DNA from: a virus
Length of the DNA: 64,000 bases
Virus record (IMG/VR): IMGVR_UViG_3300032829_000008
Span: 2,579 to 66,578 of that record
Strand: one strand, 5' to 3'
Each line of letters starts with the position of its first letter. Position 1 is the stretch's first letter. Of this stretch, positions 21,791 to 55,122 are shown piece after piece. The translations under genes and the position numbers were made by a program. The notes under the pieces are model-generated. The model did not search any database and was not told where the DNA came from. It worked only from the letters and a program-made list of their open reading frames with translations.

Positions 21791-22603
21791 ATGGCAAAGC
21801 ACGAGAAAGAGACTGCGATGACCAAGGCACCACCCGCTGCGGTGCAGACCTACGACTACGGTGATGATGCCGTGGAGCTGGGCAAGGGCCCCGCCAAGGG
21901 GTTCGAGAACCAGACCAACGCCGATGCGGCGATGCCGTTCCTCAAGATCGCGGAGTTCCTTACTCCGGAGGTCAAGGAGGGCAAGGCCAAGGCGGGGCAG
22001 ATCATCAACACCGTGACCGGCGAGGTATTGGACGAGGTGTTCCTCGTTATCGGCACCACGCGCCACAGCATCGCGCTGTTCACCCCGCGCGATAAGGGTG
22101 GTGGGTTCCAGGGCCAGCTGGAGATCGACGACCCCGCCTGGGCCAAGGCGCAGAAGGAGCAGAAGTTCGGCGAGTACGTGGACGCCAACGGTAGCGAGAT
22201 GGTGGAGACGTTCTACACGTTCGGTGTGGAGGTCGATGGCGAGACTCTGGCGGTCAAGTCGCCCGTGATGCGCGCGCACAACAGCACGCATATCAAGGTC
22301 TATAAGAACTGGATCAGCCAGATCCGCAGCTACACCCAGGACGTGGGTGGTCGCAAGGTGTGCCCGCCGCTGTACGCGCACCTGGTGAAGATGACCACCA
22401 AGCTGGTGGAGAAGAAGGGCAACAGCTGGCACATCCCGGTGTACACCCCAGCCAACGGCACGATTCCCAACAGCATGATCCCGCAGACCTCGGAGGCGTA
22501 TCGCGCTGCCAAGGTGTGCGGCATGCTGGTGGATAGCGGCCAAGCCAAGGTGGACTACGGGCAGCAGGAGCGAACTGCCGCTCCGACGACCGACGTGTTC
22601 TAG
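21791..22603 (+). CDS. Putative single-stranded DNA-binding protein
   Basis: GFEN, PFLKI...TPEV, G.IINTVTGE; C-terminal tail ending DVF; strong RBS. Confidence 0.5.
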   Translation: MAKHEKETAMTKAPPAAVQTYDYGDDAVELGKGPAKGFENQTNADAAMPFLKIAEFLTPEVKEGKAKAGQIINTVTGEVLDEVFLVIGTTRHSIALFTPRDKGGGFQGQLEIDDPAWAKAQKEQKFGEYVDANGSEMVETFYTFGVEVDGETLAVKSPVMRAHNSTHIKVYKNWISQIRSYTQDVGGRKVCPPLYAHLVKMTTKLVEKKGNSWHIPVYTPANGTIPNSMIPQTSEAYRAAKVCGMLVDSGQAKVDYGQQERTAAPTTDVF

Positions 22604-25248: not shown

Positions 25249-25442
25249 AGTTGACACCTAGTCTATTGGAAGCGGTGTGGGCCGCGACATACGTGCGCGT
25301 GCTTAGTGCGATACCGTGCTCGTCAACTGGGTTGATTCACGAGCTGGCCGAAGTACTCGGTGATCCAACGCAGGCCCGCGTGCACCACGCGCAGCGCGCC
25401 GCCAACCGAGCAGTGGACGCACTGCAGGAGATGTTCGAGTGA
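25245..25442 (+). CDS. Hypothetical protein
   Basis: RBS AAGGAG, overlaps. Confidence 0.45.
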   Translation: MKLTPSLLEAVWAATYVRVLSAIPCSSTGLIHELAEVLGDPTQARVHHAQRAANRAVDALQEMFE

Positions 25443-26368
25443 AGCTCGCAATCAAGTTCTGGGAGTTCATCCGCGAGCGCGAGGCCATCCGCCTGCGCCG
25501 CGCCGCCGGTCAGCCCGCGCCGTGGACGGAGGATAAGATCCTCCGCGCGTACAAGTTCACCAACGTCAAGCGCGAGCATGATCGCACCAGCGTTGCGCTC
25601 AAGGCGATATACGATCAGCACGTGTTGCGGGCCAGCGACAGAGTGGTGTGGCTCAACTGCGCGCTGTATAGGCTGTTCGGCACCGCGGAAATGGCTGCAG
25701 CTCTGGGCTGGGTCAGGGCGTGGGGTGACGAGTCACACCGCAGGTCGCAAGTGCTCAGGTTGGCAGCCACACGCCTGGCCACGGGGCAGCGAGTGTTCAC
25801 TGGCGCGTACATTGTTCCTAACTGCGGTCGCACACGCCCCAAGCATGAGGTGGTGTGTAGTATTGTGGATGGAGTATGGAAGGCAGCACCAGAGCTGTGT
25901 GACCGTGCCATGGACCGTTGGGAACTGGCGGTAGGCGTGCTCACGCAGCTGTGGGGCATCGGCAGCTTCATCGCCAAAGAGATCGTCCTGGATTACGTCA
26001 TGGCCACCGGCTGGCGTCCCAGCGACTGGCAGACCTGGACGCCCATTGGTCCCGGAGCGCGGCGCGGTGCCATGCGGGTGCTGGACGGTAAGCTGATCCA
26101 TCCACACGGTTTGAGCGAGCACTACGCGCTGAAGGTGTGCCGCGAGTTGTACACGCAGCGTCGTGATCAGTGGGAGGACTGGTGGTCCACTGCGAATCAC
26201 GCCGCGGTGTTCAGCGACGAGGTGCGACGTAGTCGGAACTACAACCAACTGCCACCCCACAGCCACCTGGACCTGACCGACATCCAATTCCAGCTGTGCG
26301 AGTTCGACAAGTACCAGCGCGCCCTGCGCGGCGAGGGCCGACCTCGCAGCCGGTTTACACCGACGTAA
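25439..26368 (+). CDS. aGPT-Pplase clade 1 amino acid/amine:DNA transferase (thymidine hypermodification)
   Basis: ERE.IR.RR..G.P.PWT.D.IL..YKFTNV.RE.DR, FTGAY, GPGA.RG, LCEFDKY signatures. Confidence 0.88.
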   Translation: MKLAIKFWEFIREREAIRLRRAAGQPAPWTEDKILRAYKFTNVKREHDRTSVALKAIYDQHVLRASDRVVWLNCALYRLFGTAEMAAALGWVRAWGDESHRRSQVLRLAATRLATGQRVFTGAYIVPNCGRTRPKHEVVCSIVDGVWKAAPELCDRAMDRWELAVGVLTQLWGIGSFIAKEIVLDYVMATGWRPSDWQTWTPIGPGARRGAMRVLDGKLIHPHGLSEHYALKVCRELYTQRRDQWEDWWSTANHAAVFSDEVRRSRNYNQLPPHSHLDLTDIQFQLCEFDKYQRALRGEGRPRSRFTPT

Positions 26369-26420
26369 ACGAGCGTGCACACCCGCTCGCCAAGTGACCG
26401 GAAGGACATTTCCCTTGCGT

Positions 26421-26436
26421 TGGCCCGCGGGGTGCA
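26421..26436 (+). promoter_or_regulatory. sigma54-type promoter P1 (also fits sigma70 TTGCGT-17-TACGTT)
   Basis: TGGCCC-GCGGG-GTGCA; GTTTAC/GTAAAC at 26353/26365; ATG 15 nt after the C. Confidence 0.65.
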
Positions 26437-26449
26437 CTACGTTTGGGGC

Positions 26450-27550
26450 ATGACGAAGCAGCCTCCCGCCCTCCCCGTTATCGCGCCGGACGAGTATCTG
26501 TTCCCGACCGTGCAGCAGCGCGCCGACCTGCTGGACTGGATGCAGTACCGCCGCACGGTGTACCTGTGGCCCGACAGCAGCATGGGGCACGTGGCCATCA
26601 GCGAGCGCCTGAACAACTACACGGTGGAGCATGCCACCAAGCGCCCGAGCGCCGAATTCGCGCAGAAGGTGCTGCACCCTCAGACGTACCCCGCGGGGAG
26701 CGGGTGCCGTGGGAGGCGCTACTACTGGGTGTACGATACGGACTACCCGTGCAACGGTTGCCCGGACTGCCACAATTGGTGCGCGGGGTTCCACATCGGC
26801 GCATTCGTGTGGGCTGCCGCCGTTGGCGGCGAGCATCGCGAGATTGCCGGTGCCGTTGCCGCCTACCAGTGCCTGGCCGCGGTGGGCGCCGTGTTTGCCC
26901 GCCTGCAGGAGTGTCTGGCTCGCATTGGGCGGTTCTTCGAGCGCGCGGAGCAGCGCTGGGAGGAGCTGCGCAAGGGCTGCCTCTACCGCGTGCAGGGACG
27001 CCGCGGCAATGCCAAAAACCACAACGGCGCGGTGGGCGAGTGCTGCTGGATTGGGCAGGACGATTGGGGGCGGCCCCGCGCGGGGCTGCGCTTCCCGGGC
27101 CAGGAGAAGCTGGCGTACTTCGGTACCGGCAGCCTTGTCCGCGTTCCGACTCCGCCGCACGTGCTGGCGCAGCAGGAGCTGGATGCTCGCGAGCGCGCCG
27201 CTGCCAAGTTGGCGCAGCAGGCGGCCAAGGAGAAACTCGCAGCAGCGCCCCGCTACTCCGGTGGGCGCGATGGCACCGCGTACGTACTGCGCGGCGAGCA
27301 CCGCGGTCAGTTCGGGAAGGTGTTCTGGATTGGTGAGGACAAGCGCCGCGGTGGCGTGCGGCTGGGCATTCGCCCGGGCGTGGTGAAGGGTACCAGAGGT
27401 GCCGGCAAGCGTCAGTCCAACGTGGAGCCCATTTGGGCCAACGCGGCCGATTGCTGCGACCAGAATGATGAGGTGGGCATGGTGGCGTGGGACGCCCTGC
27501 AGCGCGGCGATGAGGCCGCGCTGAACGAGGTGCTGGAGGCCAGAGTCTAA
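26450..27550 (+). CDS. Hypothetical protein with two SH3/KOW-like repeats
   Basis: Repeated G.C/VFWIG.D...R.G.R motif; no SD before ATGACGA. Confidence 0.55.
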   Translation: MTKQPPALPVIAPDEYLFPTVQQRADLLDWMQYRRTVYLWPDSSMGHVAISERLNNYTVEHATKRPSAEFAQKVLHPQTYPAGSGCRGRRYYWVYDTDYPCNGCPDCHNWCAGFHIGAFVWAAAVGGEHREIAGAVAAYQCLAAVGAVFARLQECLARIGRFFERAEQRWEELRKGCLYRVQGRRGNAKNHNGAVGECCWIGQDDWGRPRAGLRFPGQEKLAYFGTGSLVRVPTPPHVLAQQELDARERAAAKLAQQAAKEKLAAAPRYSGGRDGTAYVLRGEHRGQFGKVFWIGEDKRRGGVRLGIRPGVVKGTRGAGKRQSNVEPIWANAADCCDQNDEVGMVAWDALQRGDEAALNEVLEARV

Positions 27551-27590
27551 CGCGCTCGGGTCGGGTGGCCCGGCGCATGAAAGGAGCAGT

Positions 27591-28109
27591 ATGGTGATGA
27601 CAGCACAGCAGAACTACAGTCGGCGCGAGGGCATCAAGGCCCAGGCGGCAGCTCGCCGCGCCAAGAAGGAGGGCCCCGTGGCCAAGGAGCTGATGGCCGC
27701 TGCTTGGGCGGCCCTGGTGAAGATGGTGGCCGACGATGGCTTGGACGATCAGCCAGCGCACGAGTTGTGGGACGTGGTGCCCTGGTGCGGCAAGCTACTG
27801 GCCCTGCCCCGTGACCCGGCCATGGCCGACGACTGCCACATGGAGTGGTCCGCGGAGGGCTGGCTGCTGGTGGAGGGGGCCGCACCCGTGCGCTGCCACG
27901 ACGAGCAGTGGTGCCTGTGGTGGGAGCGGGTGTGCCGCACCGCGGCCCGCTACGGCGTGGACGTGCGCGACAAGGTGCCGCCCGAGGGTGCCCTACTGGC
28001 CTGGGAAAAGGGCCGCAGCGGCCTGTGGTACGCGCTCAACCAGCTGGAGGACCAGCTGGGGCTGCCGCACAAGGTGCGGCAGTGGTCCGACATCAAGTGG
28101 GACGACTGA
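27591..28109 (+). CDS. Hypothetical protein
   Basis: RBS AAAGGAG. Confidence 0.55.
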   Translation: MVMTAQQNYSRREGIKAQAAARRAKKEGPVAKELMAAAWAALVKMVADDGLDDQPAHELWDVVPWCGKLLALPRDPAMADDCHMEWSAEGWLLVEGAAPVRCHDEQWCLWWERVCRTAARYGVDVRDKVPPEGALLAWEKGRSGLWYALNQLEDQLGLPHKVRQWSDIKWDD

Positions 28110-28145
28110 TAACGGGCGGCCACACGGTGTGGCCGCCCGTTATCA
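28107..28145. repeat. Perfect 19-bp inverted repeat with 1-nt spacer
   Basis: TGATAACGGGCGGCCACAC-G-GTGTGGCCGCCCGTTATCA. Confidence 0.9.
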
Positions 28146-28183
28146 CTCCGGAAGCAAGTCGGCCAAATCATGTGGACTGAAGT

Positions 28184-28199
28184 CGGCACGCCGGTAGCA
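28184..28199 (+). promoter_or_regulatory. sigma54-type promoter P2
   Basis: CGGCAC-GCCGG-TAGCA (GG-N10-GC) about 40 bp downstream of the GATAAC/GTTATC palindrome. Confidence 0.5.
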
Positions 28200-28271
28200 A
28201 TAAACCCCTTGCACGAGTCAGGTGGCTCGTGCTAACAACCCTAGACGATACCCAATGGAAGGAAGCAGACC

Positions 28272-28793
28272 ATGGCAGTAGTCAGCAAGCGCACGTTCGG
28301 GCTGCACGGCCCACTCACCTACGACCAGCTCAACCAGCTGAGCACCCTGGAGCTCATCCAGCTGCACAACGCCAAGAGCGAGAAGCAGATCAAGGTGTTC
28401 CACACCAAGGCCAAGGGCATGAACAAGGTGTGGGAGCTGTATGCCGCCGAAGAGGTGGTCGAGAACAATCCCCCCGCCGAGACCGCCGATGGTGGCGCGA
28501 ACGGCATCGAAACGACAACGGAGGCAAGTGACATGGCGAAGAAGACGAAGGCACCCAAGGCACCCAAGGCGAAGAAGGCTGGCGGTGGCACCCGCATCCC
28601 GGCGGACGCGACCATCAAGGTCCTGGCCAAGGAGAACCCTTACAAGAAGGGCACCAAGGCGTACGCCACGTTCGAGCTGTTCGGCAAGAGCAAGACGGTG
28701 GCCGAGTTCCGCGAGAAGGCGAGCGACAAGGATCGCTTCGACCCGGGGTACATCAAGTACTCCAGCCGCGACGGCTATATCAAGATCGGGTAA
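28272..28793 (+). CDS. Lys-rich, probably DNA-binding (histone-like) protein
   Basis: KKTKAPKAPKAKKA linker; I.V..KENP.K.GTKA...F domain; strongly biased codons; possible internal start MAKK at 28533. Confidence 0.6.
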   Translation: MAVVSKRTFGLHGPLTYDQLNQLSTLELIQLHNAKSEKQIKVFHTKAKGMNKVWELYAAEEVVENNPPAETADGGANGIETTTEASDMAKKTKAPKAPKAKKAGGGTRIPADATIKVLAKENPYKKGTKAYATFELFGKSKTVAEFREKASDKDRFDPGYIKYSSRDGYIKIG

Positions 28794-28983
28794 CTGGGTC
28801 GCCAGGCGACCCAGTAGGGCAGGCCGACCTCGGCCGACCTTAGGCGCCTCCGCGGGTGGAGCGGGGCGCCTGCCCTGCGAGTAGGCACGCAGCACACGGC
28901 CACGAGCACCTTCAGTGGTGAACCGCGCAGCGAACCCTGGGGCGCGGGGTGGTGTCTTGGCTGCGTGCCTGCTCGGAGGGCAC

Positions 28984-29808
28984 GTGCAAACCATCTTCGA
29001 GTTCGGCGACGCTAAGCTGGCCGCCGTGGACCTGGACCCGTTGTACGTGGCCGCGGTGCGCATGCCGTGGGGTCACGTGGAGCGCTGCAGGTTCACGCTG
29101 GCCGAGGTCGCGTTCGACCTGGCCGGCAAGGCAGCGGAGGTGGTGGAACGGTGTGCCTCCGGTATGCCGTTCTGGGACTCCATGCGCGCCGCCGCGGCGG
29201 ACACCAAGCGCGGCGCACCGCGCCGCTACTTCCGTGGGCCCAAGTGCATGGACGCGTTGGAGGTCATGCGCGAGCTGTACCCCGATGCGCCCGAGGCCCT
29301 GGCCGCGCTGGCCGGCACGTTCGCGCACGCCGAGGAGGTGGTATGCGGCAGCTGGCCGCTGTGGGGCCCCACCGCCGCGTTCAAGATCGCCGACATGGCC
29401 GAGCGGGTGTGCCAAGTGCCCGTGGACTTCGGCGCCGTCGGCGAGACGGAGATCTGCAGCAACGCGCAGGTGCGCAAGGGTTGGGACAAGGCCCGGGACG
29501 TGTTGGCAGCCGCAGGCGACGCCCGCGCGCAGGACCTGGCGGCCAGTCTGCGCCAGCACATCTGGTGCACCAAGGCACCACCGCGGTGGGACCGCGAGTT
29601 GGGGCCACAGGAGTGGGAGACGCTCCTATGCTACTACAGCCACGACGACGAGCACAATCATCACTTGCCCGGCATGGACCGACTCGGCATCGCCGAGGAG
29701 CTGTACGATCATGGCGACGTGGCCGCGGAGCTGCTGGGACACTTGCCCTGGGCGACCGAGGCGGAGATGTACGAATGGCTGGACGCCAAGCATAGGAGAA
29801 CCAAATGA
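28984..29808 (+). CDS. aGPT-Pplase clade 2 amino acid:DNA transferase
   Basis: DLDPLY, RG..RRYFRG, GP..AFKIADM.ER, APP..DR....QE.ET.LC signatures; GTG after GGAGG. Confidence 0.82.
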   Translation: MQTIFEFGDAKLAAVDLDPLYVAAVRMPWGHVERCRFTLAEVAFDLAGKAAEVVERCASGMPFWDSMRAAAADTKRGAPRRYFRGPKCMDALEVMRELYPDAPEALAALAGTFAHAEEVVCGSWPLWGPTAAFKIADMAERVCQVPVDFGAVGETEICSNAQVRKGWDKARDVLAAAGDARAQDLAASLRQHIWCTKAPPRWDRELGPQEWETLLCYYSHDDEHNHHLPGMDRLGIAEELYDHGDVAAELLGHLPWATEAEMYEWLDAKHRRTK

Positions 29809-30011
29809 AGAGCAGGCACGAGTTTGTAGTAGTCAACCAGGATGGTAAGCGTGTGCAGTGGCTGCTGGAGTTCGAAAAGGACGGCGTCAACTTCACGTTG
29901 AGCCACCAGGGAGGTCAAGCAGTCAGCGCTTGGCTGCCGCCCGCCACCGCCGAGGACCTGCGCGAGCTGTTGGCGATGTACCAGAATAGTCGCAAGCGGA
30001 GCGGCGCGTGA
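29805..30011 (+). CDS. Hypothetical protein
   Basis: RBS AGGAG, overlaps. Confidence 0.5.
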   Translation: MKSRHEFVVVNQDGKRVQWLLEFEKDGVNFTLSHQGGQAVSAWLPPATAEDLRELLAMYQNSRKRSGA

Positions 30012-30610
30012 GCACGCTGCTGCACATCATCGGGGCCGGTGCCACCGGCAAGTCCACCCTCACGCGCGGTCTGCTGGGGGAAGGTGCCGTGGACGGCAAC
30101 GCCTCCATCAGCGAGGCAGTACCACGCGCCAAGTACGGCGCCTCGCGGGACTTGTGTAGGTACGTCGTCGGCAATCTGAAGAACGGCACGGATAGCGTGA
30201 GTGAAATGGTGACTGCGGCGGCGATCGCCAACTGGCTGTTGGGATTGCACAGGACCAGTCTGGTGATCGTGGATGGCGTCCGCAGCAGCGCCAAGTGGTG
30301 CGTGGACTGGGCGCACTCCCCGGAGTGCAGAGCGACGCACCTGGCGTACGCGTACCTGGACCTGTCTCTCGACGAGACGCTGGAGCGCCTGCGCGCGCGT
30401 CGCCGCGGCAACGGCGAGAGCGACGAGCTGAGCGAGAAGACTGTGGCCAACGTCCGCGCGTTTCAGCGCCGCGCCCACGGCGTGTGGCGGAAGGTGGTGC
30501 AGCGTGCCGACCACCCGGGCAAGCCCACGGCACTGCTGGTGCTGCGCGAGGGCACCGCCGCGGATTGGTTGGAGCGGGCCGAGCAGTTCTTAACGCACCG
30601 CGTTGCGTAG
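30008..30610 (+). CDS. P-loop kinase, candidate 5-hmdU DNA kinase
   Basis: IIGAGATGKSTL, G.DSV, IVDG, LERLRARR lid; between transferase and hydroxymethylase. Confidence 0.7.
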   Translation: MSTLLHIIGAGATGKSTLTRGLLGEGAVDGNASISEAVPRAKYGASRDLCRYVVGNLKNGTDSVSEMVTAAAIANWLLGLHRTSLVIVDGVRSSAKWCVDWAHSPECRATHLAYAYLDLSLDETLERLRARRRGNGESDELSEKTVANVRAFQRRAHGVWRKVVQRADHPGKPTALLVLREGTAADWLERAEQFLTHRVA

Positions 30611-30615
30611 AAAGC

Positions 30616-30645
30616 TTGCTTCACTTGGCCGCGTAGTTGTAAGGT
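30616..30645 (+). promoter_or_regulatory. Putative sigma70-type promoter
   Basis: TTGCTT-N18-TAAGGT in AT-rich intergenic gap. Confidence 0.35.
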
Positions 30646-30675
30646 GGCCGGCACATTTAATGAAGGGTGGCAGCC

Positions 30676-30897
30676 ATGTACAAGCCTGTGCCGTGGGAAG
30701 GGTTGCGCAAGCTCTTGCGTTACTCCTTTGCCGACCTGGGGAGTTACGATGATCTAACGGTGGAGGAGCAGGCTGCGCTGACCCGCGAGGAGTTCGAGGT
30801 GCTGGCGGCTTGGGCCAAGCGGGATGAACCGATGGCCGCCGAGTTCCGATGTGAACACTGCGGCACCAACCACGTGGCCGAGCTGAGGGTCGCGTGA
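30676..30897 (+). CDS. Hypothetical protein
   Basis: SYDDLT..EQ...TREEF motif, C-terminal CxxC. Confidence 0.5.
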   Translation: MYKPVPWEGLRKLLRYSFADLGSYDDLTVEEQAALTREEFEVLAAWAKRDEPMAAEFRCEHCGTNHVAELRVA

Positions 30898-31892
30898 GGG
30901 TCCTGCATGTCCGCAACGTGCACCGCGCGATACCCGCAGCGCTGGCTCACTTAGTGGAGCACGGCGAGCGGCGCGAGAGTCGCAATGGCCCGGTGCTGCA
31001 GCCTCCGCATCCCGTCACCACCGTGTACAGCCACCCATTGGAGCGGGTGGAGGCGTGGGTCGCGCGCAACAGCAACCCGTACCTGCACCTGTTCGAGAGC
31101 GCGTGGATGCTGGCGGGGCGCAACGACGTGGCGAGCCTGGTCCGCTACGCCAAGCGGTTCGCCGAATTTAGCGACGACGGTGAGACGTTCAACGCGCCGT
31201 ACGGTTACCGCTGGCGTCACGCGACCACGCAAAATGTCGATCAACTCGCAGTGATCGCAGATCAGCTGCGCGCCAATCCCAACACGCGCCAGGCGGTGCT
31301 GCAGATTTGGACCGTCAAGCACGACCTGCTGGCGGTCACCAAGGACCACGCCTGCAACCTGACGGCGACGTTCCAGGTGGGCAGCGACGGTCGGCTGCAC
31401 ATGTGCGTGTTCTGCCGGTCCAACGACATCGTCTGGGGCTGCTACGGCGCCAACGCGGTGCATTTCAGCTATCTGCTGGAGTATGTGGCCGCCCGGGCGG
31501 GTATCCCGGTGGGGACGTACACGCAGATCAGTGTCAACTGGCACGGATACCTGTCCACGGTGCAGCCCCTGGTGGCAGCTGGGCTGCACCAGCACGGCGA
31601 GCACCCCAGTTCGTACGAGACTGGCGCCTGGACGCCGTATCCCATCACCAGGGGCGGATTCGACGCCCACTGGTTCGACGTGGACCTTGCGGTCGCCACC
31701 AGTGACCAAGGTCGCGCGGTGGAGGCCAGCTATCACCACGCCTGGTTTCGCGAGGTGCTGCTGCCGGTCATGCGCAGCCACGACGCCTACAAGGCGGGTG
31801 ATCGATTCGGCGCGCTGCACCACATATCAGACTGCGCTGCCACGGACTGGCAGCAGGCGTGCCGGTGGTGGCTCGCCAGAAAGGCAAAGTGA
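30894..31892 (+). CDS. Thymidylate synthase-family dUMP hydroxymethylase
   Basis: SRNG, YG.RWR, TRQAVL, catalytic HACN, RSND..WG..GAN (Asn indicates dUMP specificity). Confidence 0.88.
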   Translation: MRVLHVRNVHRAIPAALAHLVEHGERRESRNGPVLQPPHPVTTVYSHPLERVEAWVARNSNPYLHLFESAWMLAGRNDVASLVRYAKRFAEFSDDGETFNAPYGYRWRHATTQNVDQLAVIADQLRANPNTRQAVLQIWTVKHDLLAVTKDHACNLTATFQVGSDGRLHMCVFCRSNDIVWGCYGANAVHFSYLLEYVAARAGIPVGTYTQISVNWHGYLSTVQPLVAAGLHQHGEHPSSYETGAWTPYPITRGGFDAHWFDVDLAVATSDQGRAVEASYHHAWFREVLLPVMRSHDAYKAGDRFGALHHISDCAATDWQQACRWWLARKAK

Positions 31893-38962: not shown

Positions 38963-39331
38963 GTGGGCGGCGATCGACGGTCCATCAGCGTCACAGGCGA
39001 GGCGCACCGCGCGCTGCAGGAGCTGGCGAAGCAGCGCAACAGGAGCATGTCCTCCATTGTCGAGGACTGGATCCGCGGCATGACAGGTCTTGCTCCTGCC
39101 GGTCACCGCGCGGTACCAGACTTGCGCGTCGAGGTGCGTGTTCTGGAGGACACCAAGCAAAGGATCGAAGAGCGCATTGAGCAGCGCCGCGCGGCCATCC
39201 GCGCGGCGCTGGACCAGCGCACGGCCGAGATAAAGATCCGAAACAGGGAGGAGGCCGAGCGCCGTGCGGAGGCTAACCCATGTCGCGATCCGAAGTGCCA
39301 TCGCACGGCGCTGCACGAGGCGCACAAGTGA
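38963..39331 (+). CDS. Ribbon-helix-helix DNA-binding protein with C-terminal C2H2-like motif
   Basis: RRSISVTGEAHRALQELAKQRNRSMSSIVEDWI is RHH-like. Confidence 0.6.
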   Translation: MGGDRRSISVTGEAHRALQELAKQRNRSMSSIVEDWIRGMTGLAPAGHRAVPDLRVEVRVLEDTKQRIEERIEQRRAAIRAALDQRTAEIKIRNREEAERRAEANPCRDPKCHRTALHEAHK

Positions 39332-41700
39332 GCGGCGGCCCCATCATGGAGGTGGCGCTGGGGTTCTTACGCTGGCTGCGGCCCGCGGGGCCTTGGATGC
39401 TGGTGGCCATCGCTCAGGAGAAGACCGGCATCAGGGCCCAGCACTTTACGGAGCTGGGGCGGGACATTGAGGAGTGGCTGTTGCGCCACCAGCAACACAA
39501 CATCTACTACCACGTCAATCCCACGCTGCGCCCCATGACCAAGAAAGCCGATCGTACGGACATTGCCGCCGTGGAACTGCTGCACGTTGATAGCGACCCG
39601 CGCGCTGGCGAGAACCTGCAGGACGAGCAGACGCGCATCCGCAAGTTGATGGACAACATGCCCCGCGGCGTACCCAAGCCCAGCGCCGTGGTCTTCAGCG
39701 GTGGCGGGTACAACGCGCTGTGGCGATTGCGCGAGCCCATTCCCCTGGGTGGTGACCTGGTCAAGGCGGAGGAGGCCAAGCGGTACAACCTGCAGTTGGA
39801 GATCCTGCTCGGCGGCGATAGTTGCCACAACGTGGACCGCATCCTGCGATTGCCCGGCACCGTCAATTGGCCCGACGAGAAGAAGCGCCGCAAGGGTCGG
39901 TTGCCGTGCACCGCGGACGTGGTGTGGCTGGAGGATACTACGTATCCCATCAGCGACTTCGTCGCCGCACCGCTGGTGCAGAGCCGCGCGGAGGGCGGCG
40001 GCCTGGCCCTGGGCGGCAGCATCCACGTGCAGATCAGCGGCAACGTGCCGCGGCTGCGCAGCGTTGACGAGCTTGGTGAGAAGGTTTCGCAACGCACAAA
40101 GATGCTCATCGTGCAGGGCATGGACCCCGACGAGCCGGGCAAGTGGTCCAGCCGCAGCGAGTTGCTGTTCCACGTGTGTGCAGAGTTGGTGCGCGCCGGC
40201 TGCACCGACGAGCAGATCTTCAGCGTTATCACCGACCCAGACTTTCTCATCAGCGCCAGCGTGCTGGACAAGGGTAGCGCCACGCGACGCTACGCCGAGC
40301 GGCAGATTCAACGTGCGCGGGAGGACGTCATCAACCCGCACCTGCGGGCGCTCAACGAACGGCACTGGGTAGTGGGCAACATCGGTGGCCGGTGCCGCGT
40401 GGTGGAGGAGGTAGTGGACCACGCGTTCGAGCGACCTCGCCTGACCATGCAGAGTTTCGAGGATATCCGCAACCGCTACATGAACGTGCGCGTGGAGATT
40501 GGCCGCGACGAGGACGGCCACGTGCGCACGGCACCGCTAGGCAAGTGGTGGCTGGAACACCCCAACCGACACCAGTATGAGAGGATCGTGTTTATGCCCA
40601 AGCGCGAGGCTCCGGGTTGCTACAACATGTGGCAGGGCTTTGCCTACGAGGCCAAGCCAGGCGACAAGCATCGAAAGTTCCTGGACCACGTGCGCACCGT
40701 GGTGTGCGGGGGTGTGTTGGAGTATTACGAGTACCTGGTGCGGTGGATGGCCCGAGGGATCCAGCAGCCCGATACGCCCGGGGAAGTGGCCGTGGTGCTC
40801 CGTGGTGACCAGGGCACCGGCAAGAGCACTGTCGCTCGCGAGTACGGCAGCCTGTGGGGCCGACATTACCTGGCGGTTAGCGACCCCAAGCACCTCGTGG
40901 GCAGCTTCAACGCGCACCTGCGGGACGCCGTGTTCGTGTTTGCCGACGAGGCCTTCTATGCCGGGGACAAGAAGCACGAGTCCATCCTCAAGACCATGAT
41001 CACCGAGGAACTGCTCACCATCGAGGCTAAGGGGCGCGATGTTGAGACGACCCGCAACTTCATCCACTTGATGATGGCTAGCAACGGTTCATGGGTGATC
41101 CCCGCCGGTCCCAACGAGCGGCGGTTCCTGGTACTGGACGTCAAGCGCCACCACATGGGCGATACCGCGTACTGGGAGGCGCTCAACGGCGACATGCGCA
41201 GCGGAGGCAGGGAGAATCTGCTCCACTACCTGCTGACGCTGGACCTGGCGGGGTTCGACGTGCGGCGCGTGCCCCGCACGGATGCGTTGCGCGACCAGAA
41301 GCTGCTGAGCTTCAGCAGCGAGCAGGAGTGGTGGTACCAAAAGCTGGAGGCGGGCCAGCTGCTGCGCAGCCACGTGGGATGGACCGCGCCAGTGTTCTGC
41401 GAAAGCCTGGTGGACGATTATCTCACGTACGCTCAACGGCTGGGCGGGACCAAGCGTGCCACGGCCACGGCCCTAGGTAGGTTCCTCCACGCCGCGCTGC
41501 CGGAGGGCTGGCCGCAGCGCAAGCAGATCAACCGCACATACGTGGACCCGCACACGCAAGCCCGCATGTCGGAGCGTGCGTACGCCTGGTTCATGCCACC
41601 GCTGGAGGAGTGCCGCGCCTGGTGGGACGCGCACTTTGGCGGACCGTACGCGTGGCCGCAGGACCACCACGAAGGACCAGAGACGCAGGAGGTGTTCTGA
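39328..41700 (+). CDS. Primase-helicase (RepB-like AEP primase plus SF3/DUF5906 helicase)
   Basis: HVDSD, FSGGGY, DRILRLPGTVN; GDQGTGKS, FADE, IEAKG, MASN, ERRF. Confidence 0.9.
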   Translation: MSGGPIMEVALGFLRWLRPAGPWMLVAIAQEKTGIRAQHFTELGRDIEEWLLRHQQHNIYYHVNPTLRPMTKKADRTDIAAVELLHVDSDPRAGENLQDEQTRIRKLMDNMPRGVPKPSAVVFSGGGYNALWRLREPIPLGGDLVKAEEAKRYNLQLEILLGGDSCHNVDRILRLPGTVNWPDEKKRRKGRLPCTADVVWLEDTTYPISDFVAAPLVQSRAEGGGLALGGSIHVQISGNVPRLRSVDELGEKVSQRTKMLIVQGMDPDEPGKWSSRSELLFHVCAELVRAGCTDEQIFSVITDPDFLISASVLDKGSATRRYAERQIQRAREDVINPHLRALNERHWVVGNIGGRCRVVEEVVDHAFERPRLTMQSFEDIRNRYMNVRVEIGRDEDGHVRTAPLGKWWLEHPNRHQYERIVFMPKREAPGCYNMWQGFAYEAKPGDKHRKFLDHVRTVVCGGVLEYYEYLVRWMARGIQQPDTPGEVAVVLRGDQGTGKSTVAREYGSLWGRHYLAVSDPKHLVGSFNAHLRDAVFVFADEAFYAGDKKHESILKTMITEELLTIEAKGRDVETTRNFIHLMMASNGSWVIPAGPNERRFLVLDVKRHHMGDTAYWEALNGDMRSGGRENLLHYLLTLDLAGFDVRRVPRTDALRDQKLLSFSSEQEWWYQKLEAGQLLRSHVGWTAPVFCESLVDDYLTYAQRLGGTKRATATALGRFLHAALPEGWPQRKQINRTYVDPHTQARMSERAYAWFMPPLEECRAWWDAHFGGPYAWPQDHHEGPETQEVF

Positions 41701-42323: not shown

Positions 42324-43153
42324 CCATGCCCGGATTCGACGCTGCCGCCGTGGACGAGAACGGAGTCATCGATTGGAAGCGCGCTCGCGCGCAGGGCTGT
42401 ACCTTCGCGTACCTCAACGCGACACCAGGCAACAGCGTGTGGAACCAAGCACCAGCAGCCAGGGCTGCCGGCATGCGCGTGGGGCCGTACTGGTTCCCGG
42501 TGATCATGCGCGACTACCTCTCGCTGCCCACGCAGTGGGAGCGCGCGTACCGCACGGCGCAGGTCATCGCCGGCGACTTGCCCTGGGTGATGGACGTGGA
42601 GCTGCCGCACCAGCTCTCCGGCACCAAGATGAGCAGGGCAGAGGTGTGCGCCGCGTACCTGGCCGGCTACGACGCCATGGCGGGCGACCTGAAGTACGAC
42701 CCCGGCCTGTACGTCAGTCGTCGCGTGATGGACACGGACGACTCGGACACGCTCGCCGGTGGCCTGAATGGCCTGGCCAAGCGCGCGTGGCTGTGGCTGG
42801 CGTACTACCAGACGGGCGCTCCGCCGACGCCGCAGGCGTGGGGCGCCGACAACTGGTGGATTCACCAGGACCACGGCGACACGCACGGGTTGTTCGGCAT
42901 CCGCCAGGTGGACAGCGACCAGTGGCACTACCTGGTCACCGGCATGACCGGACCGCGCGTGGCACACCTGCAGTACAAACTGCAGGACATGGGGCTGGAC
43001 GGGGCGCACTCGCCGGACATCGTGCAGGGCGTGTACGATGCAGCCACCAAGGCTGCCGTGTGCGCGGCCCAGCGACACGCCGGTCTGGTCGAGGATGGCG
43101 TGGTGGGGCCAGACACGTTCGCCGTGATCTTCACCGCGCAGAGGACGGTATGA
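42320..43153 (+). CDS. Endolysin: GH25 muramidase with C-terminal peptidoglycan-binding domain
   Basis: IDW, G.Y.F, DVE, LWLA.Y, W.IHQ, VD.D; G.YD.AT..AV...Q...GL..DG.VGP.T. Confidence 0.88.
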   Translation: MTMPGFDAAAVDENGVIDWKRARAQGCTFAYLNATPGNSVWNQAPAARAAGMRVGPYWFPVIMRDYLSLPTQWERAYRTAQVIAGDLPWVMDVELPHQLSGTKMSRAEVCAAYLAGYDAMAGDLKYDPGLYVSRRVMDTDDSDTLAGGLNGLAKRAWLWLAYYQTGAPPTPQAWGADNWWIHQDHGDTHGLFGIRQVDSDQWHYLVTGMTGPRVAHLQYKLQDMGLDGAHSPDIVQGVYDAATKAAVCAAQRHAGLVEDGVVGPDTFAVIFTAQRTV

Positions 43154-43470
43154 TCCTCGTGCTGGTGGCGCTTGGTTGGACGGCCGCCTGCGCGGTGTGG
43201 CCACTGGTGATGGCCTACACGCTGGCCTTTACGCTGTACCTGCTGGCCGTGGCAACATTGGGATTGCTGCCGTGGCTGCTGGTGGAAAGCGCGCTGGGGC
43301 TGCTAGAGAGCTGGTCCATGCGACGATGGCAGCGCCGCATGGACAGGGAACCGCTCATTCCACCGGCAGTCGTGGTTGAAATCAAAGGTGGAAAACTCAA
43401 GCTGCTGGCGACCGCAACTGGCGACGCGGCAAGCGAGGCGACATGTCGGACACACTCGAACCTCAATTGA
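43150..43470 (+). CDS. Two-TM membrane protein (holin candidate)
   Basis: Long hydrophobic N-terminal half; directly after endolysin. Confidence 0.45.
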   Translation: MILVLVALGWTAACAVWPLVMAYTLAFTLYLLAVATLGLLPWLLVESALGLLESWSMRRWQRRMDREPLIPPAVVVEIKGGKLKLLATATGDAASEATCRTHSNLN

Positions 43471-43706
43471 TGGCCACGCTGCAGTGGCGCAAGCTGCGCA
43501 AGCTGCTGCTGGACGCCCTGCTGGATGTGGAGCTGCAGATCACCCACGAACTCGAGCTGGACGACGTCAACACGTTGCTGTCGTTTGTCGCCGAGCACTG
43601 GGGCCACGATGCACCCCGGCAGCTGGAGTACCACGATCTGGAGATGCGCATGCGCAAGCTGCAGGCCGAGCACGAGAAGCTCAAGGAGTACTGCCGTGAC
43701 CGATAA
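43443..43706 (+). CDS. Hypothetical coiled-coil protein
   Basis: RBS GAGG. Confidence 0.45.
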   Translation: MSDTLEPQLMATLQWRKLRKLLLDALLDVELQITHELELDDVNTLLSFVAEHWGHDAPRQLEYHDLEMRMRKLQAEHEKLKEYCRDR

Positions 43707-44235
43707 GCTGGTGAGGGAGGCCGCCGCTGGACGGGGCTTATGGATCGGCATCCCAGTACCGGTGGCGCAGTGGCGCGAGGAGAATCCGCTCCACCCACTG
43801 CTGCCGTGGCTGGGTGAGCGCGCGCACGTCACATTGCTACATATGGGCAAGCACCCGCAGACGGCTGCCATGCGCGTGGCGACGGCGCTGGCAGCAGCGC
43901 GCGCCGCGGCGGAGTGCTTGCCGGTGAAGTGCGCCGTCACCGGGCTGGGCTGGTTCAGCCGGCGCGCCGGACCGCCCACGCGCGTGGCCCTGGTCAACAG
44001 TCCATGGCTCACCAACCACCTGCGGCCCCGCGTATACCAGCGAGCCTCGCAGGAGTTGGCCCTGGACGACTGGTTCGGGTTTATCCCGCACGTGACGCTG
44101 ACCGAACCAGCGAACACCTCGTGGGAGGATCTGGAAGACACCATGGGAGGGTTCCTCGGGTGGCGCGCGGAGATCATCCAGGTGCACTGCGGCGAGGTCA
44201 CAGTGGACGTGGGCCTACCGGAGATGCCGTTTTGA
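43696..44235 (+). CDS. 2H phosphoesterase (2'-5' RNA ligase / Acb1-like)
   Basis: Two HxT motifs: AHVTLLHMG and FIPHVTL. Confidence 0.8.
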   Translation: MTDKLVREAAAGRGLWIGIPVPVAQWREENPLHPLLPWLGERAHVTLLHMGKHPQTAAMRVATALAAARAAAECLPVKCAVTGLGWFSRRAGPPTRVALVNSPWLTNHLRPRVYQRASQELALDDWFGFIPHVTLTEPANTSWEDLEDTMGGFLGWRAEIIQVHCGEVTVDVGLPEMPF

Positions 44236-44495
44236 GGCCCCGAAAACCCAGCTATGCTGTGATCGTGGCCAAGCTGCAGGCAGCAGAGAAGGAGATCCAG
44301 CAGCTGCGCCGCGCCGGAGGTGCCGATGTGCTGGCCGTGGCGCAAGCGCTGCTCCAGATCCTGGAGGCGGAGGAGGGTTACATGGCCCCGGAGCATCAGG
44401 CAACGGTGCGCACCGCGCGCGCCGTGCTGGACAACGTCACGCGACCTACGACGCCAAGAAGCGCGCCTCGCCGCACTGGGATTCGTACCCGCTAG
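44232..44495 (+). CDS. Hypothetical protein
   Basis: TTG overlapping upstream stop. Confidence 0.4.
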   Translation: MRPRKPSYAVIVAKLQAAEKEIQQLRRAGGADVLAVAQALLQILEAEEGYMAPEHQATVRTARAVLDNVTRPTTPRSAPRRTGIRTR

Positions 44496-44528
44496 GCAGT
44501 TTGTAACCCCCACTAAAGGAGCAATGTC

Positions 44529-44741
44529 ATGAAGAAGAAACTGTCTCTCCGTAAAGAGTCGATCCAGAAGCTTGGGAGCAGGGCGCTCTCTCAGGTGGTT
44601 GGTGGAGTCGACCAAACCGACACCTGCCTCGGCACTCAGTGCCTGTGTTACCCGACGTACGGGCCGGACTGCCACACCGTCGGTTTCACGCAGTGCCTGT
44701 GCTCGGCTGGTCACACCAACTGCGGCTGCGTGGGCGGGTGA
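44529..44741 (+). CDS. Lanthipeptide-like RiPP precursor peptide
   Basis: Leader MKKKLSLRKESIQKL...LSQVVGG and Cys/Thr-rich core; strong RBS TAAAGGAG. Confidence 0.72.
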   Translation: MKKKLSLRKESIQKLGSRALSQVVGGVDQTDTCLGTQCLCYPTYGPDCHTVGFTQCLCSAGHTNCGCVGG

Positions 44742-44905
44742 CGACAGTCCGCATCCAAGGTCCGGGCTGGGAGGTGGTGACCGAGGTCGCCTCGGTGTAC
44801 GGCGATGCCGCTGGCGTGGCCCGCCGGCTGCGCGCCGAGGGCCTGGCAGCGCAGAAGCGCGGCGCGGAGGTGCTGGTCAATGCGAACGCCGAGCGCCGCG
44901 CGTGA
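44738..44905 (+). CDS. Hypothetical protein
   Basis: GTGA overlap. Confidence 0.4.
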   Translation: MTTVRIQGPGWEVVTEVASVYGDAAGVARRLRAEGLAAQKRGAEVLVNANAERRA

Positions 44906-45188
44906 TCCGCGGTGCCTGTGGCCGAACCTGCGCCCCGGCGACTGGGTGTGGTTCAACGGCACGCGCCGGCTGTTGGTGGACCTGGGGCGCCGCGTGGTCA
45001 CCTTCTACAAGATCGGGCACAGCTGGACCGATCCCAACCCGCGCGCCACGTACGACGTGTACGCGGTGAAGCGGGCGGGTGGTCTGCGCCTGGCGCGCCA
45101 CGGCGGGATCGCCAGCAGGGCGAGGGCGAGGTGGGCAATCGAATGGGTGAAGCCATCCGTTAACGGCGGCAGTGTAAACGGACGTTAA
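44805..45188 (+). CDS. Hypothetical protein (true start uncertain, probably near 44900)
   Basis: LRPGDWV.FNG..R.V SH3-like segment. Confidence 0.35.
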   Translation: MPLAWPAGCAPRAWQRRSAARRCWSMRTPSAARDPRCLWPNLRPGDWVWFNGTRRLLVDLGRRVVTFYKIGHSWTDPNPRATYDVYAVKRAGGLRLARHGGIASRARARWAIEWVKPSVNGGSVNGR

Positions 45189-45238
45189 CGCACGCCCGAC
45201 GCGTCTAGGAAGAACACGCTCTTAGATGCGCTTGTGTT

Positions 45239-45254
45239 TGGCCCCCGGGTTGCT
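45239..45254 (+). promoter_or_regulatory. sigma54-type promoter P3 (also fits sigma70 TTGTGT-17-TATCAT)
   Basis: TGGCCC-CCGGG-TTGCT; GTTAAC/GTAAAC/GTTAAC at 45159/45174/45184; ATG 14 nt after the C. Confidence 0.7.
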
Positions 45255-45266
45255 TATCATTGGGGC

Positions 45267-45566
45267 ATGACGAACAGCAGCAAGAACCCCAAGTACCTCA
45301 CACTGGTGGCCGACGGCGCGGAGATGGTCCTCGCGGAGGGCGCCGATGTCGAGAAGTTCCTCAATGCCCAGGCGCGCGGTCCCGCCGGCAGCTGCCCGGG
45401 GCCGGTGATGACCCGCAAGTTCCAGACCAACATGCCGCGCACGTACGGCGCGCTGCTGGAGCAGCTGGCCGGCGAGCTGGGCACCGAGAGCGAGGCGGCC
45501 ACGCTGCGCGCGGTGGTGCAGGCGGGCCTGCGGGCGCTGGGCTGCGACCTTGACGACGAGGAGTAA
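45267..45566 (+). CDS. Hypothetical protein with RHH-like C-terminus (possible regulator)
   Basis: KFQTNMPRTYGALLEQLAGELGTESEAATLRAVV; no SD before ATG. Confidence 0.55.
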   Translation: MTNSSKNPKYLTLVADGAEMVLAEGADVEKFLNAQARGPAGSCPGPVMTRKFQTNMPRTYGALLEQLAGELGTESEAATLRAVVQAGLRALGCDLDDEE

Positions 45567-45603
45567 TGAGGACGGTGCTGGGGCGGAGGCGATGCAGAAG
45601 TAA

Positions 45604-45668
45604 GCCACCGGGCGGAGCTGGTGCCCGCCGGATGATAGCCCGCCGGGGTTCGATTCCCCGCGGTGGCA
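45604..45668 (+). ncRNA. Minimal tRNA-like RNA (non-canonical; GAT at the anticodon position)
   Basis: Acceptor GCCACCG/CGGTGGC+A, T-arm CGGGG-TTCGATT-CCCCG, D-like hairpin with TGG, no variable loop, no CCA. Confidence 0.6.
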
Positions 45669-45681
45669 CTGGAGGTTACCA

Positions 45682-45912
45682 ATGGACGACAAGCAGAAGG
45701 GCGTGCGCCGCCGCACCGAGATGTTCTTGAAGAACGAGCGTGGGAAGCCACACGAGTTCGACCGCCTGCACGCGGTGCTGTGCCTCACCCACGGTTGGGC
45801 CAACAACGAAGAGGACCTGCAGGCGAGCATCGCGCTGCGCGACATCGTGGACACCGAGTTGATCGCCGAGCGGTGCGACGAGCTGCTGATGAAGGGGCGC
45901 TCTCATGGATAG
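45682..45912 (+). CDS. Hypothetical protein
   Basis: RBS GGAGGT. Confidence 0.5.
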   Translation: MDDKQKGVRRRTEMFLKNERGKPHEFDRLHAVLCLTHGWANNEEDLQASIALRDIVDTELIAERCDELLMKGRSHG

Positions 45913-46087
45913 CGCGCCCCGGTGCAAGCACTGCGGCGCTCTGCTCAAGCGCCACAAGTTTGCCGGCGATCTGCCTGGTGTGGGTGGCGACGGCAAGTCG
46001 CGCGAGTACGGCTACCTGGGTGATAACACCTTTTGCAGCAAGGAGCACGGCTACCAGTACGGGCTGACCGAGGTGCGCCGTGGATAG
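45905..46087 (+). CDS. Small Zn-finger-like protein
   Basis: CKHCG ... GY.G...FCS..HG. Confidence 0.5.
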   Translation: MDSAPRCKHCGALLKRHKFAGDLPGVGGDGKSREYGYLGDNTFCSKEHGYQYGLTEVRRG

Positions 46088-46334
46088 CCACATCGTCGAG
46101 CTGACCGCCAGGGCCTTCGCGCCTGGCCTCGTGCGGGACCAGTGGGTGCGCCTGGCTCGATTCCACGACCTGTGCGTCGCCGCGCAGGATTGGCACGCGG
46201 TGCGCCTGGTGGGTGTTGCGCTGCGTCCCCACATGAACGGGTGGGTCCCCACGCTGGTGGAGGTGCAGGCGGCGATCAGGGCCATGGCGGTGCTGGCGGC
46301 GCGGGACGTGTACGAGCCGGATAGGGCACCGTGA
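46080..46334 (+). CDS. Hypothetical protein
   Basis: RBS GAGGT. Confidence 0.4.
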   Translation: MDSHIVELTARAFAPGLVRDQWVRLARFHDLCVAAQDWHAVRLVGVALRPHMNGWVPTLVEVQAAIRAMAVLAARDVYEPDRAP

Positions 46335-46432: not shown

Positions 46433-46444
46433 GTACCTCCAGAC

Positions 46445-47741: not shown

Positions 47742-47753
47742 TTGCTCGGGAGC

Positions 47754-53375: not shown

Positions 53376-53644
53376 GATTCCTGCTGGTCGTCATGTGCTT
53401 CGGCCACCCGTGGTCCACGGACGTGGTGGGGCGTGGCGTGGCCACCGCGCGCACCATGGGCTACGCCCGCAGCCTCGCGCTGACGGAGGCCAATGACGAT
53501 GGCGTGCGCCAGTGCCATGAGGCGGACGAGCAGAAGGCTTGCTGGCAGGGCGACTCCAACCTCAAGGATTTTTGCGTGGCGCTGCGCGGTGGCGATTGGG
53601 AGTGCCACCGCGAGGAGTGCGGTCACTGCAAGGCGTGCGAGTGA
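53372..53644 (+). CDS. Cys-rich hypothetical protein
   Basis: Overlapping start/stop. Confidence 0.4.
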   Translation: MRFLLVVMCFGHPWSTDVVGRGVATARTMGYARSLALTEANDDGVRQCHEADEQKACWQGDSNLKDFCVALRGGDWECHREECGHCKACE

Positions 53645-55122
53645 TCGACGCCGACCTGCTAGATCTGTTCGACATCGAGGCCGAGCAGCTGGAGCTGCTT
53701 ACTGAGGACGAGCAGAGGGAGTTGCTGGAGGGCCTGCAGGCACTGGTGGGCGGGGAGACGCCAGATCAATTTATCCGGCGGTTGTGGTACTGGGAGCCGC
53801 CACCCGAACACGTGCGTCCGCTGCTGGACGTCATGCAGCAGGCCCGACTGCGCCAGCTGCGCATCTGCCTGTCCATGCCACCTGGACACGCCAAGACCAC
53901 CATGCTGCTGCGTTGCCTGGTGTGGTGGCTGAGCCTGAGCCCCAGCGACCTGTGCGCGTATGTCAGCTACAACGAGCGCCAGGCGCTCAAGAAGAGTCGC
54001 GTGTGCCGCGCCATGGCGCTCAAGGCGGGGTTGATGGTCACGCGCGACAATAAGGCGATGAGTGAGTGGCACCTGCACCAGGGCGGTGGCCTGCTGGCGG
54101 GCGGCGCGCGCAGCGGTCTCACCGGCAACCGCGTGCCCGGGCTGCTGGTGTACGACGATCCGTACAAGGATCACAAGGACGCCAACAGTCCCACCATCCG
54201 CGAGACGGTGCAAGAGAATTTCAAGACCGTGGCCTTCACGCGGTTGCAGGGTGGATCTATCATCGTGCTGCACACGCGCTGGCACGAGGACGATCTCATT
54301 GGCTGGCTGCTGAAGGAGCACAAGTGGGACCATATCAACGTCCCGGCCATCAGCCAGGAGGGTATCAAGGACGCGCTCGGCCGACGCCCGGGCGTTCCCG
54401 CGTGGCCCGACAAGTACCCGATCGAGATCTGCACCAAGCCCTGCGGCCACGACGGCCACCTGGCCGAGATTCGCACCACCATCGGCGAGCACTGGTGGAA
54501 TGGGATGTACGAGGGCGTGCCACCGCGCATCGGCACCAGTGTCTTTCACGAGCCGGTCACCTATCGCAAAGCCACCGAGTTCCGGTGGGCCGGCAAGCGC
54601 GGGTGCATCTCCGTGGATCCCGCTGCCACGGCCAGCACCAAGGCCGATTGGAGCATCATCATGGTGCTGGCCATGGAGGGCTACGGCATCGATACCCGCA
54701 TGTGGATCTACGAGTGTATCCGCCTGCAGGTGGAGATCCCGCAGCTGGTGCGGCAGATTCGCAGCGTGCAGCAGCGGTACAACCTGCTGGTGGTGTGCGA
54801 GGCGGTGGCGGGGTTCAAGTCCGTGCCGCAGATGCTTCGCGACCAGGATCCCGAGTTGCGCGTGGTGGAGTGCGATCACGGTGGTAAGGACAAGTTTACA
54901 CGCAGCCAGCCGGTGGCCAGCGCGTGGAACGGAGGGCGCGTGTTGGTACCCAACGATCCGCAGTGCGCCGAGTGGGTCAATCCCATGGTGAGGGTGTTCC
55001 GCGCGTTCACTGGTCTCAACGACCTGCACGACGACGACGTGGACGCCGCGGCACATGGGTGGAACAAGATGTATCGCGCCAAGCCACCCCTGACCCAGGG
55101 CAGCTACGAGGCGGTAATGTGA
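53641..55122 (+). CDS. terL: Terminase large subunit
   Basis: MPPGHAKT, LTG, YDDPYK, HTRWHEDDLIG, VDPA, HDDDVDA. Confidence 0.95.
   Translation: MIDADLLDLFDIEAEQLELLTEDEQRELLEGLQALVGGETPDQFIRRLWYWEPPPEHVRPLLDVMQQARLRQLRICLSMPPGHAKTTMLLRCLVWWLSLSPSDLCAYVSYNERQALKKSRVCRAMALKAGLMVTRDNKAMSEWHLHQGGGLLAGGARSGLTGNRVPGLLVYDDPYKDHKDANSPTIRETVQENFKTVAFTRLQGGSIIVLHTRWHEDDLIGWLLKEHKWDHINVPAISQEGIKDALGRRPGVPAWPDKYPIEICTKPCGHDGHLAEIRTTIGEHWWNGMYEGVPPRIGTSVFHEPVTYRKATEFRWAGKRGCISVDPAATASTKADWSIIMVLAMEGYGIDTRMWIYECIRLQVEIPQLVRQIRSVQQRYNLLVVCEAVAGFKSVPQMLRDQDPELRVVECDHGGKDKFTRSQPVASAWNGGRVLVPNDPQCAEWVNPMVRVFRAFTGLNDLHDDDVDAAAHGWNKMYRAKPPLTQGSYEAVM

Follow-up and report, generated by a model that had tools for sequence, protein, structure and literature searches.

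A candidate class I lanthipeptide-type precursor gene in a phage genome without detectable maturation or export enzymes

Introduction

RiPP precursors are usually viewed as parts of bacterial gene clusters, and the class I lanthipeptide enzymes LanB and LanC are guided by the leader of their substrate and tolerant of its core. The temperate phage SPbeta has genes of its own for the modification and export of sublancin and for immunity to it. The peptide in question, sublancin 168, is a modified antimicrobial peptide encoded on this Bacillus prophage (PMC6391423). For the class I precursors of Bacteroidetes, a leader motif LxLxKx5L...GG has been described, frequently accompanied by a cluster-encoded C39 protease, and family I-17 of that classification includes pinensin (Walker et al. 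2020, PMC7268733). The same study reports that the genes of many prochlorosin-type precursors of cyanobacteria lie at a distance from that of their LanM (PMC7268733). Finally, the term 'lanthiphage' has been used for complete actinobacterial class I lanthipeptide clusters that defend the cell (bioRxiv 10.1101/2024.06.26.600839).

Here, we analyze a small gene for a candidate lanthipeptide precursor in the virus record IMGVR_UViG_3300032829_000008, which comprises 66,578 bases and is 97% complete by CheckV. The stretch under study, referred to as the window, is 64,000 nucleotides long and covers bases 2579-66578 of the record, leaving 2.6 kb outside. The encoded peptide resembles the bacterial L1a LanA precursors described by the model NF038153 in its leader, which scores above the cut-off of the model, contains LxLxKx5L and ends in Gly-Gly, as well as in its core rich in Cys and Thr/Ser and in its size within the range of 60-80 aa. 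In contrast to these precursors, which lie within 3.5 kb of LanC (3/3 genomes), the phage copy has no such enzymes in 66.6 kb; its TCLGTxCxCxPT core is distinct from every bacterial core compared, and its carrier is a phage with 65% GC.

The other described systems are more distant. By analogy with the prochlorosins (class II, ProcM), the phage precursor may act in trans with one leader-guided, core-tolerant enzyme; however, prochlorosins belong to the LanM class and have a Nif11-type leader, and their precursor and enzyme reside in one bacterial genome instead of being split between virus and host. As in the case of sublancin 168, the peptide is encoded by a phage genome, but sublancin is a glycocin, whereas here the precursor stands alone and no tyrosine integrase was found. 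The 'lanthiphage' clusters, likened here by description only, would share class I lanthipeptide chemistry in a phage-host conflict; they are complete and serve bacterial defence, while the present precursor is alone and on the side of the phage. In the literature covered, no publication was found that describes a lone lanthipeptide precursor carried by a phage; the precursor lists of PMC7268733 may include related cores.

Results

The peptide ORF is a real gene within an array of small phage genes

The features of the locus and its surroundings are listed in Table 1. The reading frame of the peptide ORF opens at position 44517, and its first start codon is the unique ATG at 44529. A 33-nt gap separates the ORF from the upstream 78-codon ORF, which ends at 44495, and this gap contains the AAGGAG sequence 7 nt before the ATG, in agreement with the first-pass annotation of the DNA, which had assigned the 70-aa ORF a strong ribosome-binding site of its own. 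The same annotation had called the 5′ part of the gene AT-richer, as is indeed the case: GC amounts to 0.53 in the leader versus 0.66 in the core, against 0.62-0.68 in 2-kb bins across the window, and GC3 is 0.65 in the leader, 0.84 in the core and 0.77 overall. The leader, MKKKLSLRKESIQKLGSRALSQVVGG, ends C-terminally in Gly-Gly, and the residue counts previously given for the 44-aa core (8 Cys, 8 Thr/Ser and two copies of TQCLC, at residues 36-40 and 54-58) were all correct.

Table 1. Coordinates of the peptide gene and of other features in the window (position 1 is the first letter of the window)
Feature	Position	Strand	Remarks
Pam3 gp34-like protein	21791..22603	+	PF23977, 122 bits
Thymidine hypermodification module	25439..31892	+	5-hmdU DNA kinase PF18723, 136 bits
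Primase	39280..41700		
GH25 endolysin with peptidoglycan-binding domain	42326..43153		
2H phosphoesterase, stand-alone, 179 aa	43696..44235	+	PF13563, 34 bits, cut-off 27
Shine-Dalgarno AAGGAG	44516..44521	+	Direct reading, ATG 7 nt further
Peptide ORF	44529..44741	+	70 codons, 213 bases, own Shine-Dalgarno
Leader, 26 codons, LxLxKx5L and terminal Gly-Gly	44529..44606	+	NF038153 match
Core, 44 codons, 8 Cys and 8 Thr/Ser, TQCLC twice	44607..44738	+	Family alignment
TGA stop	44739..44741	+	GTGA overlap with GTG (44738) of next small ORF
Downstream 55-codon ORF, start GTG 44738	44738..44905	+	GC3 0.86, overlaps peptide TGA
Stand-alone receiver-like protein, 113 aa	46750..47091	+	Response_reg 20.6 bits, below cut-off 30.2; GC3 0.96
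TerL	53539..55122		

A second wetland metagenome run contains a near-identical strain of the phage. Between positions 43400 and 46400, 22 of the 31 coding differences between the two strains are synonymous, and so are both differences in the peptide ORF (Y44 TAC>TAT and C67 TGC>TGT), where the comparison relies on one contig at a depth of 4.4 that covers 44627-44741 and leaves 44521-44626 uncovered. Given the unique start, the strong ribosome-binding site, the GC3 values and the synonymous strain differences, the 44529..44741 ORF is a real gene. The runs listed as holding the peptide stretch were two DNA runs, both wetland metagenomes, one of which may be the source of the record, and no RNA run was among them. 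A sequence scan of the 41500-48500 region found no sigma-70-like promoter and no terminator adjoining the peptide gene.

The gene lies behind the lysis cassette in a plus-strand array of tightly packed small genes, where it is preceded by the 2H phosphoesterase gene and then the 78-codon ORF and followed by the 55-codon ORF. The latter is translationally coupled to the peptide gene via the GTGA overlap; it matched no Pfam or PHROG family and showed one synonymous and one nonsynonymous difference in the second wetland strain.

The leader matches the class I lanthipeptide L1a model

The NF038153 model (lant_leader_L1a) matched residues 1-26 of the phage peptide with 26 bits (cut-off of 22, E value of 7.3e-6) and reached 27.8 bits in a six-frame search of the virus record, while none of the 14 control genomes contained a match. 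The motif residues, L5-S-L7-R-K9-ESIQK-L15 ... G25-G26, agree with the motif described for Bacteroidetes (Walker et al. 2020, PMC7268733). Related models scored below their cut-offs, namely NF038158 (class I leader L1b) with 15 bits (cut-off of 27) and TIGR04149 (GG_sam_targ_CFB, the leader of rSAM-modified RiPPs) with 10.6 bits (cut-off of 25). No Pfam-A family, bacteriocins included, matched the peptide at an E value of ≤10 in a Pfam set that apparently lacks PF28317 (Lant_leader_dom); this very domain is listed by the Atlas for a cluster resembling the phage peptide, although the Atlas look-alikes score under 0.9 and serve as leads only. A Sec signal peptide was ruled out by the charged and polar N-terminus. 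As judged from its leader, the assignment of the peptide as a class I lanthipeptide-type precursor, made in the first-pass annotation, is supported.

That annotation had also suggested looking for relatives of the leader beside lanB and lanC, and in bacteria they do occur there: in all three bacterial genomes examined (3/3), L1a-type precursors are located at most 3.5 kb from a LanC gene. A Bacteroidota cluster (L031) begins with four tandem L1a precursors and LanC, continues with a luciferase-like monooxygenase and a full LanB, and closes with a C39-ABC exporter followed by a second LanC-like gene. In another bacterial cluster, the precursor directly adjoins LanC and the N-terminal part of LanB, and in one genome of the Myxococcota phylum a relative of the leader adjoins LanC and LanB. 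It should be noted that in L031 (G590:C7:64000-83999) the luciferase-like monooxygenase sits between LanC and LanB.

The NF038153 cut-off was reached in 4 of 251 Bacteroidota genomes but in none of 251 Myxococcota and none of 251 Pseudomonadota genomes. Hence, of the two phyla searched among those to which this leader type had been ascribed, Bacteroidota stood, whereas Myxococcota did not at the cut-off, despite the one genome with a relative beside LanC and LanB. With 0/251 genomes reaching the cut-off, a link to Myxococcota is weak.

The core belongs to a small family with matched Ser/Thr and Cys conservation

When 1.84 billion representative proteins were searched with HMMER, 13 matched the phage peptide at an E value of ≤1e-3, and 11 of these are peptides of 68-82 aa that align across both leader and core with 41-60% identity. 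Three further strong family members emerged from a profile search, together with leader-only relatives bearing other cores. Family members are metagenomic singletons throughout. As judged from the alignment, the core defines a small family, TCLGTxCxCxPT, that is so far known from metagenomes only; the pattern itself is matched by 8 of the 12 aligned members.

In the core alignment of 12 sequences, a column was considered conserved when it was kept in at least 10 of them. The core of the family is conserved no less than the leader and contains 15 such columns, which comprise six Ser/Thr (30, 32, 36, 43, 54 and 59, with swaps only between Ser and Thr), six Cys (33, 38, 40, 48, 58 and 65) and three others (L34, G35 and P42). 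This 6:6 conservation corresponds to the one-to-one stoichiometry of Ser/Thr to Cys that thioether rings need and fits lanthionine chemistry; such a pattern is not predicted by a disulfide-only peptide. The distinct conserved core family and its 6:6 Ser/Thr-to-Cys conservation are what the present analysis adds. With the family alignment, which is shallow, AlphaFold2 gave no confident fold for the phage peptide (pLDDT of 47, pTM of 0.21), and the pLDDT of the Atlas model is 0.27.

Searches for family members with genomic context returned a single further locus. The family-alignment query A2 identified no locus among genome contigs or viral contigs and one (L002) in metagenome contigs; family members P0009 and P0004, used as single queries, returned nothing in viral contigs, and tblastn of the peptide against 50,697 phage records revealed no relative (best E value of 1). 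Among 401 genomes from each of three phyla, the family profile produced leader-level matches only (≤34 bits), namely in 2 from Myxococcota, 4 from Bacteroidota and 0 from Pseudomonadota. The exact TCLGTxCxCxPT pattern had three matches in a set representing 185,579 species by a single genome each and two in viral contigs, and all of them were dismissed as chance matches, being TCFGT or large repeat proteins.

L002, the only other family member with context, lies on a 2.85-kb metagenome contig with 65% GC and without LanB or LanC. The proteins that flank it match nothing in Pfam, PHROGs or the present phage, and the contig looks phage-like. Eight tRNA genes (Tyr, Phe, Lys, Gln, Lys, Pro, Gly and Gly) occur within 900 bases directly after the member gene (1966..2853 of L002).

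The first-pass annotation had further proposed a search for orphan precursors in other phages. One of two leader patterns run against viral contigs, a narrow one, gave eight matches, of which one was real (L032), while the other gave 17 matches, none of them real. L032 is an 89-kb virus record, 86% complete, and its 74-aa peptide shares the leader style of the phage peptide but has another core, likewise rich in Cys and Thr; neither LanC nor the LanB N-domain was found on this record. The leader of this peptide, however, scores 16.6 bits with NF038153, which is below the cut-off.

No maturation or export enzyme is encoded by the phage

The absence of visible maturation or export enzymes, previously claimed for the window, extends to the entire 66,578-base record. 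Six-frame searches of the whole 66.6-kb record with LANC_like, Lant_dehydr_N and Lant_dehydr_C gave no match at an E value of ≤1, and none was found with DUF4135 (the LanM dehydratase domain), Peptidase_C39 or Peptidase_S8. In a positive control with bacterial genomes that carry L1a-type precursors, the search for LanC recovered the gene in 3/3; Lant_dehydr_C and DUF4135 had no match in any control genome and thus constitute weaker negatives. Radical_SAM was absent from the whole record, while the same search was positive in 14/14 control genomes. The record also contains no ABC transporter, the ABC_tran hit being a sub-threshold P-loop match of 14.9 bits inside a helicase. A synthetase gene in the part of the genome beyond the window, named earlier as a finding that would speak against orphan status, was looked for in the remaining 2.6 kb and is absent. 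Pfam analysis of 20 large proteins and of the proteins near the ORF revealed nothing beyond functions in phage replication, DNA modification, lysis and the tail, along with small accessory ones. Lacking maturation and export enzymes of its own, the phage probably depends on the machinery of its host or interferes with it.

Predicted docking on a LanB N-domain and character of the phage

The structure of a LanB-leader complex has already been solved. We predicted the complex of the phage peptide with the LanB N-domain (residues 1-720) of a Bacteroidota cluster, used as a stand-in enzyme, and obtained a score of 0.57 versus 0.00 for the best control. Of 80 solved complexes, 58 pass the mark applied, as do 2 of 110 mismatched pairs; among those passing at 0.60 or under are 7 of the 80 solved complexes and both of the passing mismatches. 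Contact agreement between the runs was at least 26%, and the pLDDT of the partner was at least 35. Given the known LanB-leader complex, the pass may reflect likeness to it. The prediction lends weak support to docking of the peptide on the LanB N-domain of the stand-in enzyme.

Besides the features in Table 1, the phage record contains genes for baseplate J, two helicases and DNA polymerase A, and the thymidine hypermodification module also includes a thymidylate-synthase-like enzyme and a candidate amino acid:DNA transferase (22 bits, below cut-off). Since no tyrosine integrase was found and the phage has its own DNA polymerase, it looks lytic. There is no DNA match to cultured phages, and TerL is approximately 27% identical to its best match among phages; by these comparisons, it is at most distantly related to the phages in culture.

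Discussion

The reading that we favour, with moderate confidence, is that the phage expresses the ORF, that its product is a class I lanthipeptide-type precursor (LanA) bearing an L1a leader, and that host machinery matures this precursor. The gene would be transcribed together with the long plus-strand array behind the lysis cassette and translated from the strong ribosome-binding site seen in its sequence. The leader would then dock on the LanB dehydratase and the LanC cyclase of the host, which may dehydrate the conserved Thr/Ser residues and join them to the conserved Cys residues, forming up to six thioether rings. A C39 peptidase-ABC exporter of the host could cut after Gly-Gly, or the peptide may be freed by lysis. 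Under this scheme, the phage would contribute only the substrate, and the machinery would be that of the host; candidate roles of the product are the killing of competitors, signalling and counter-defence.

Several observations weigh against maturation by the host. L1a leaders are rare in the sampled genomes (4/251, 0/251 and 0/251), and the L1a-type bacterial loci with known GC are low in GC (0.35 for L010), in contrast to the 65% of the phage. Neither of the core-family members with genomic context adjoins LanB or LanC, and the phage copy has 8 Cys, exceeding the six conserved pairs. Moreover, as the phage looks lytic, the benefit that an exported antibiotic would bring to it is not obvious.

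Among the other explanations, it is unlikely that the product is an unmodified Gly-Gly-leader peptide, disulfide-rich or metal-binding, that is exported by a host C39 transporter or freed by lysis and forms no thioethers. The Gly-Gly leader and the 8 Cys would suit such a peptide, the six conserved Cys columns suffice for three disulfides, and a high-GC genome of the Myxococcota phylum does encode a leader-like Gly-Gly peptide at a distance of 4.8 kb from a C39-ABC exporter, on an 8.5-kb contig where neither LanB nor LanC was seen. However, the six Ser/Thr columns are as strict as the Cys columns, swapping only Ser for Thr and vice versa, the leader fits the lanthipeptide L1a model, and no Pfam bacteriocin family matches; the lack of a confidently predicted autonomous fold points the same way, although with a shallow alignment this is a weak point. 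The same Ser/Thr conservation, which suits lanthionine chemistry, also bears on the idea that the peptide is a substrate of another class of host RiPP enzymes, e.g., a radical SAM enzyme acting on the Gly-Gly-leader Cys-rich peptides of Bacteroidota. This idea draws on the faint match to TIGR04149 and on a report that Cys-rich C-termini blur the distinction between rSAM-modified peptides and lanthipeptides (PMC11118758); nevertheless, TIGR04149 stays far under its cut-off while NF038153 exceeds its own, and radical SAM is absent from the phage, which makes it very unlikely in our view.

The peptide could instead serve as a decoy or competitive inhibitor that occupies the host LanB/LanC or C39 exporter and thereby blocks the production of a host lanthipeptide, which may itself be directed against phages. 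An intact leader in a phage without enzymes of its own would suit this role, as would the location among small accessory genes near the 2H phosphoesterase and, weakly, the predicted docking on the LanB N-domain. Anti-phage class I lanthipeptide clusters are known in Streptomyces, but the published ones are actinobacterial, and no mention of the L1a leader type was found in the passages covered (bioRxiv 10.1101/2024.06.26.600839). Furthermore, a leader-only decoy would not need a conserved core, whereas 15 columns of the core pass the threshold of 10 in 12 sequences; because of this conservation we rank a pure leader decoy low. We consider the explanation as a whole distinctly unlikely. Scarcely credible, finally, is a passenger gene recently captured from a host and functionless for the phage. 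The lower GC3 of the leader and the rarity of the family, which consists of singletons, might be taken in its favour, but low GC is common in the first codons of genes. The gene is also equipped with a strong ribosome-binding site, the two strains differ in the covered part of the ORF by synonymous changes only, the family is conserved at 41-60% identity, and its second member sits on the phage-like contig L002.

Beyond the favoured reading of a phage-encoded precursor matured by host enzymes, it is possible, and we put this forward tentatively, that the TCLGTxCxCxPT peptides represent a virus-borne precursor lineage pirating host LanB and LanC, with a product that serves the phage as a polycyclic weapon against competing bacteria or phages or as a blocker of the lanthipeptide defence of the host. 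Consistent with such a lineage, the exact pattern revealed no true family member in the genomes of 185,579 species, both members with context lie on a phage or a phage-like contig, and the leader style recurs on a second virus record without LanB or LanC. If true, phages would reprogramme the peptide-modifying enzymes of their hosts by means of a gene of approximately 200 bases, which would constitute a new kind of auxiliary gene and a route for core peptides to diversify and pass between hosts, and chemical warfare or counter-defence by phages would become directly testable. Mining that drops viral contigs or demands a nearby enzyme misses such genes, and one RiPP mining study discarded viral contigs before analysis (PMC11118758).

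Some features of the neighbourhood and of the phage deserve mention in their own right. All eight strain differences in the 2H phosphoesterase gene (43696..44235) are synonymous (8/8), and the enzyme could be involved in RNA repair or in the degradation of a cyclic-nucleotide signal. ARAGORN predicted no tRNA anywhere in the window, the 45604..45668 region included. The primase is approximately 49% identical to those of PaMx11-like Pseudomonas phages and of Pseudanabaena phage Pam3, and this match, together with the gp34-like protein, hints at a module in common with phage Pam3.
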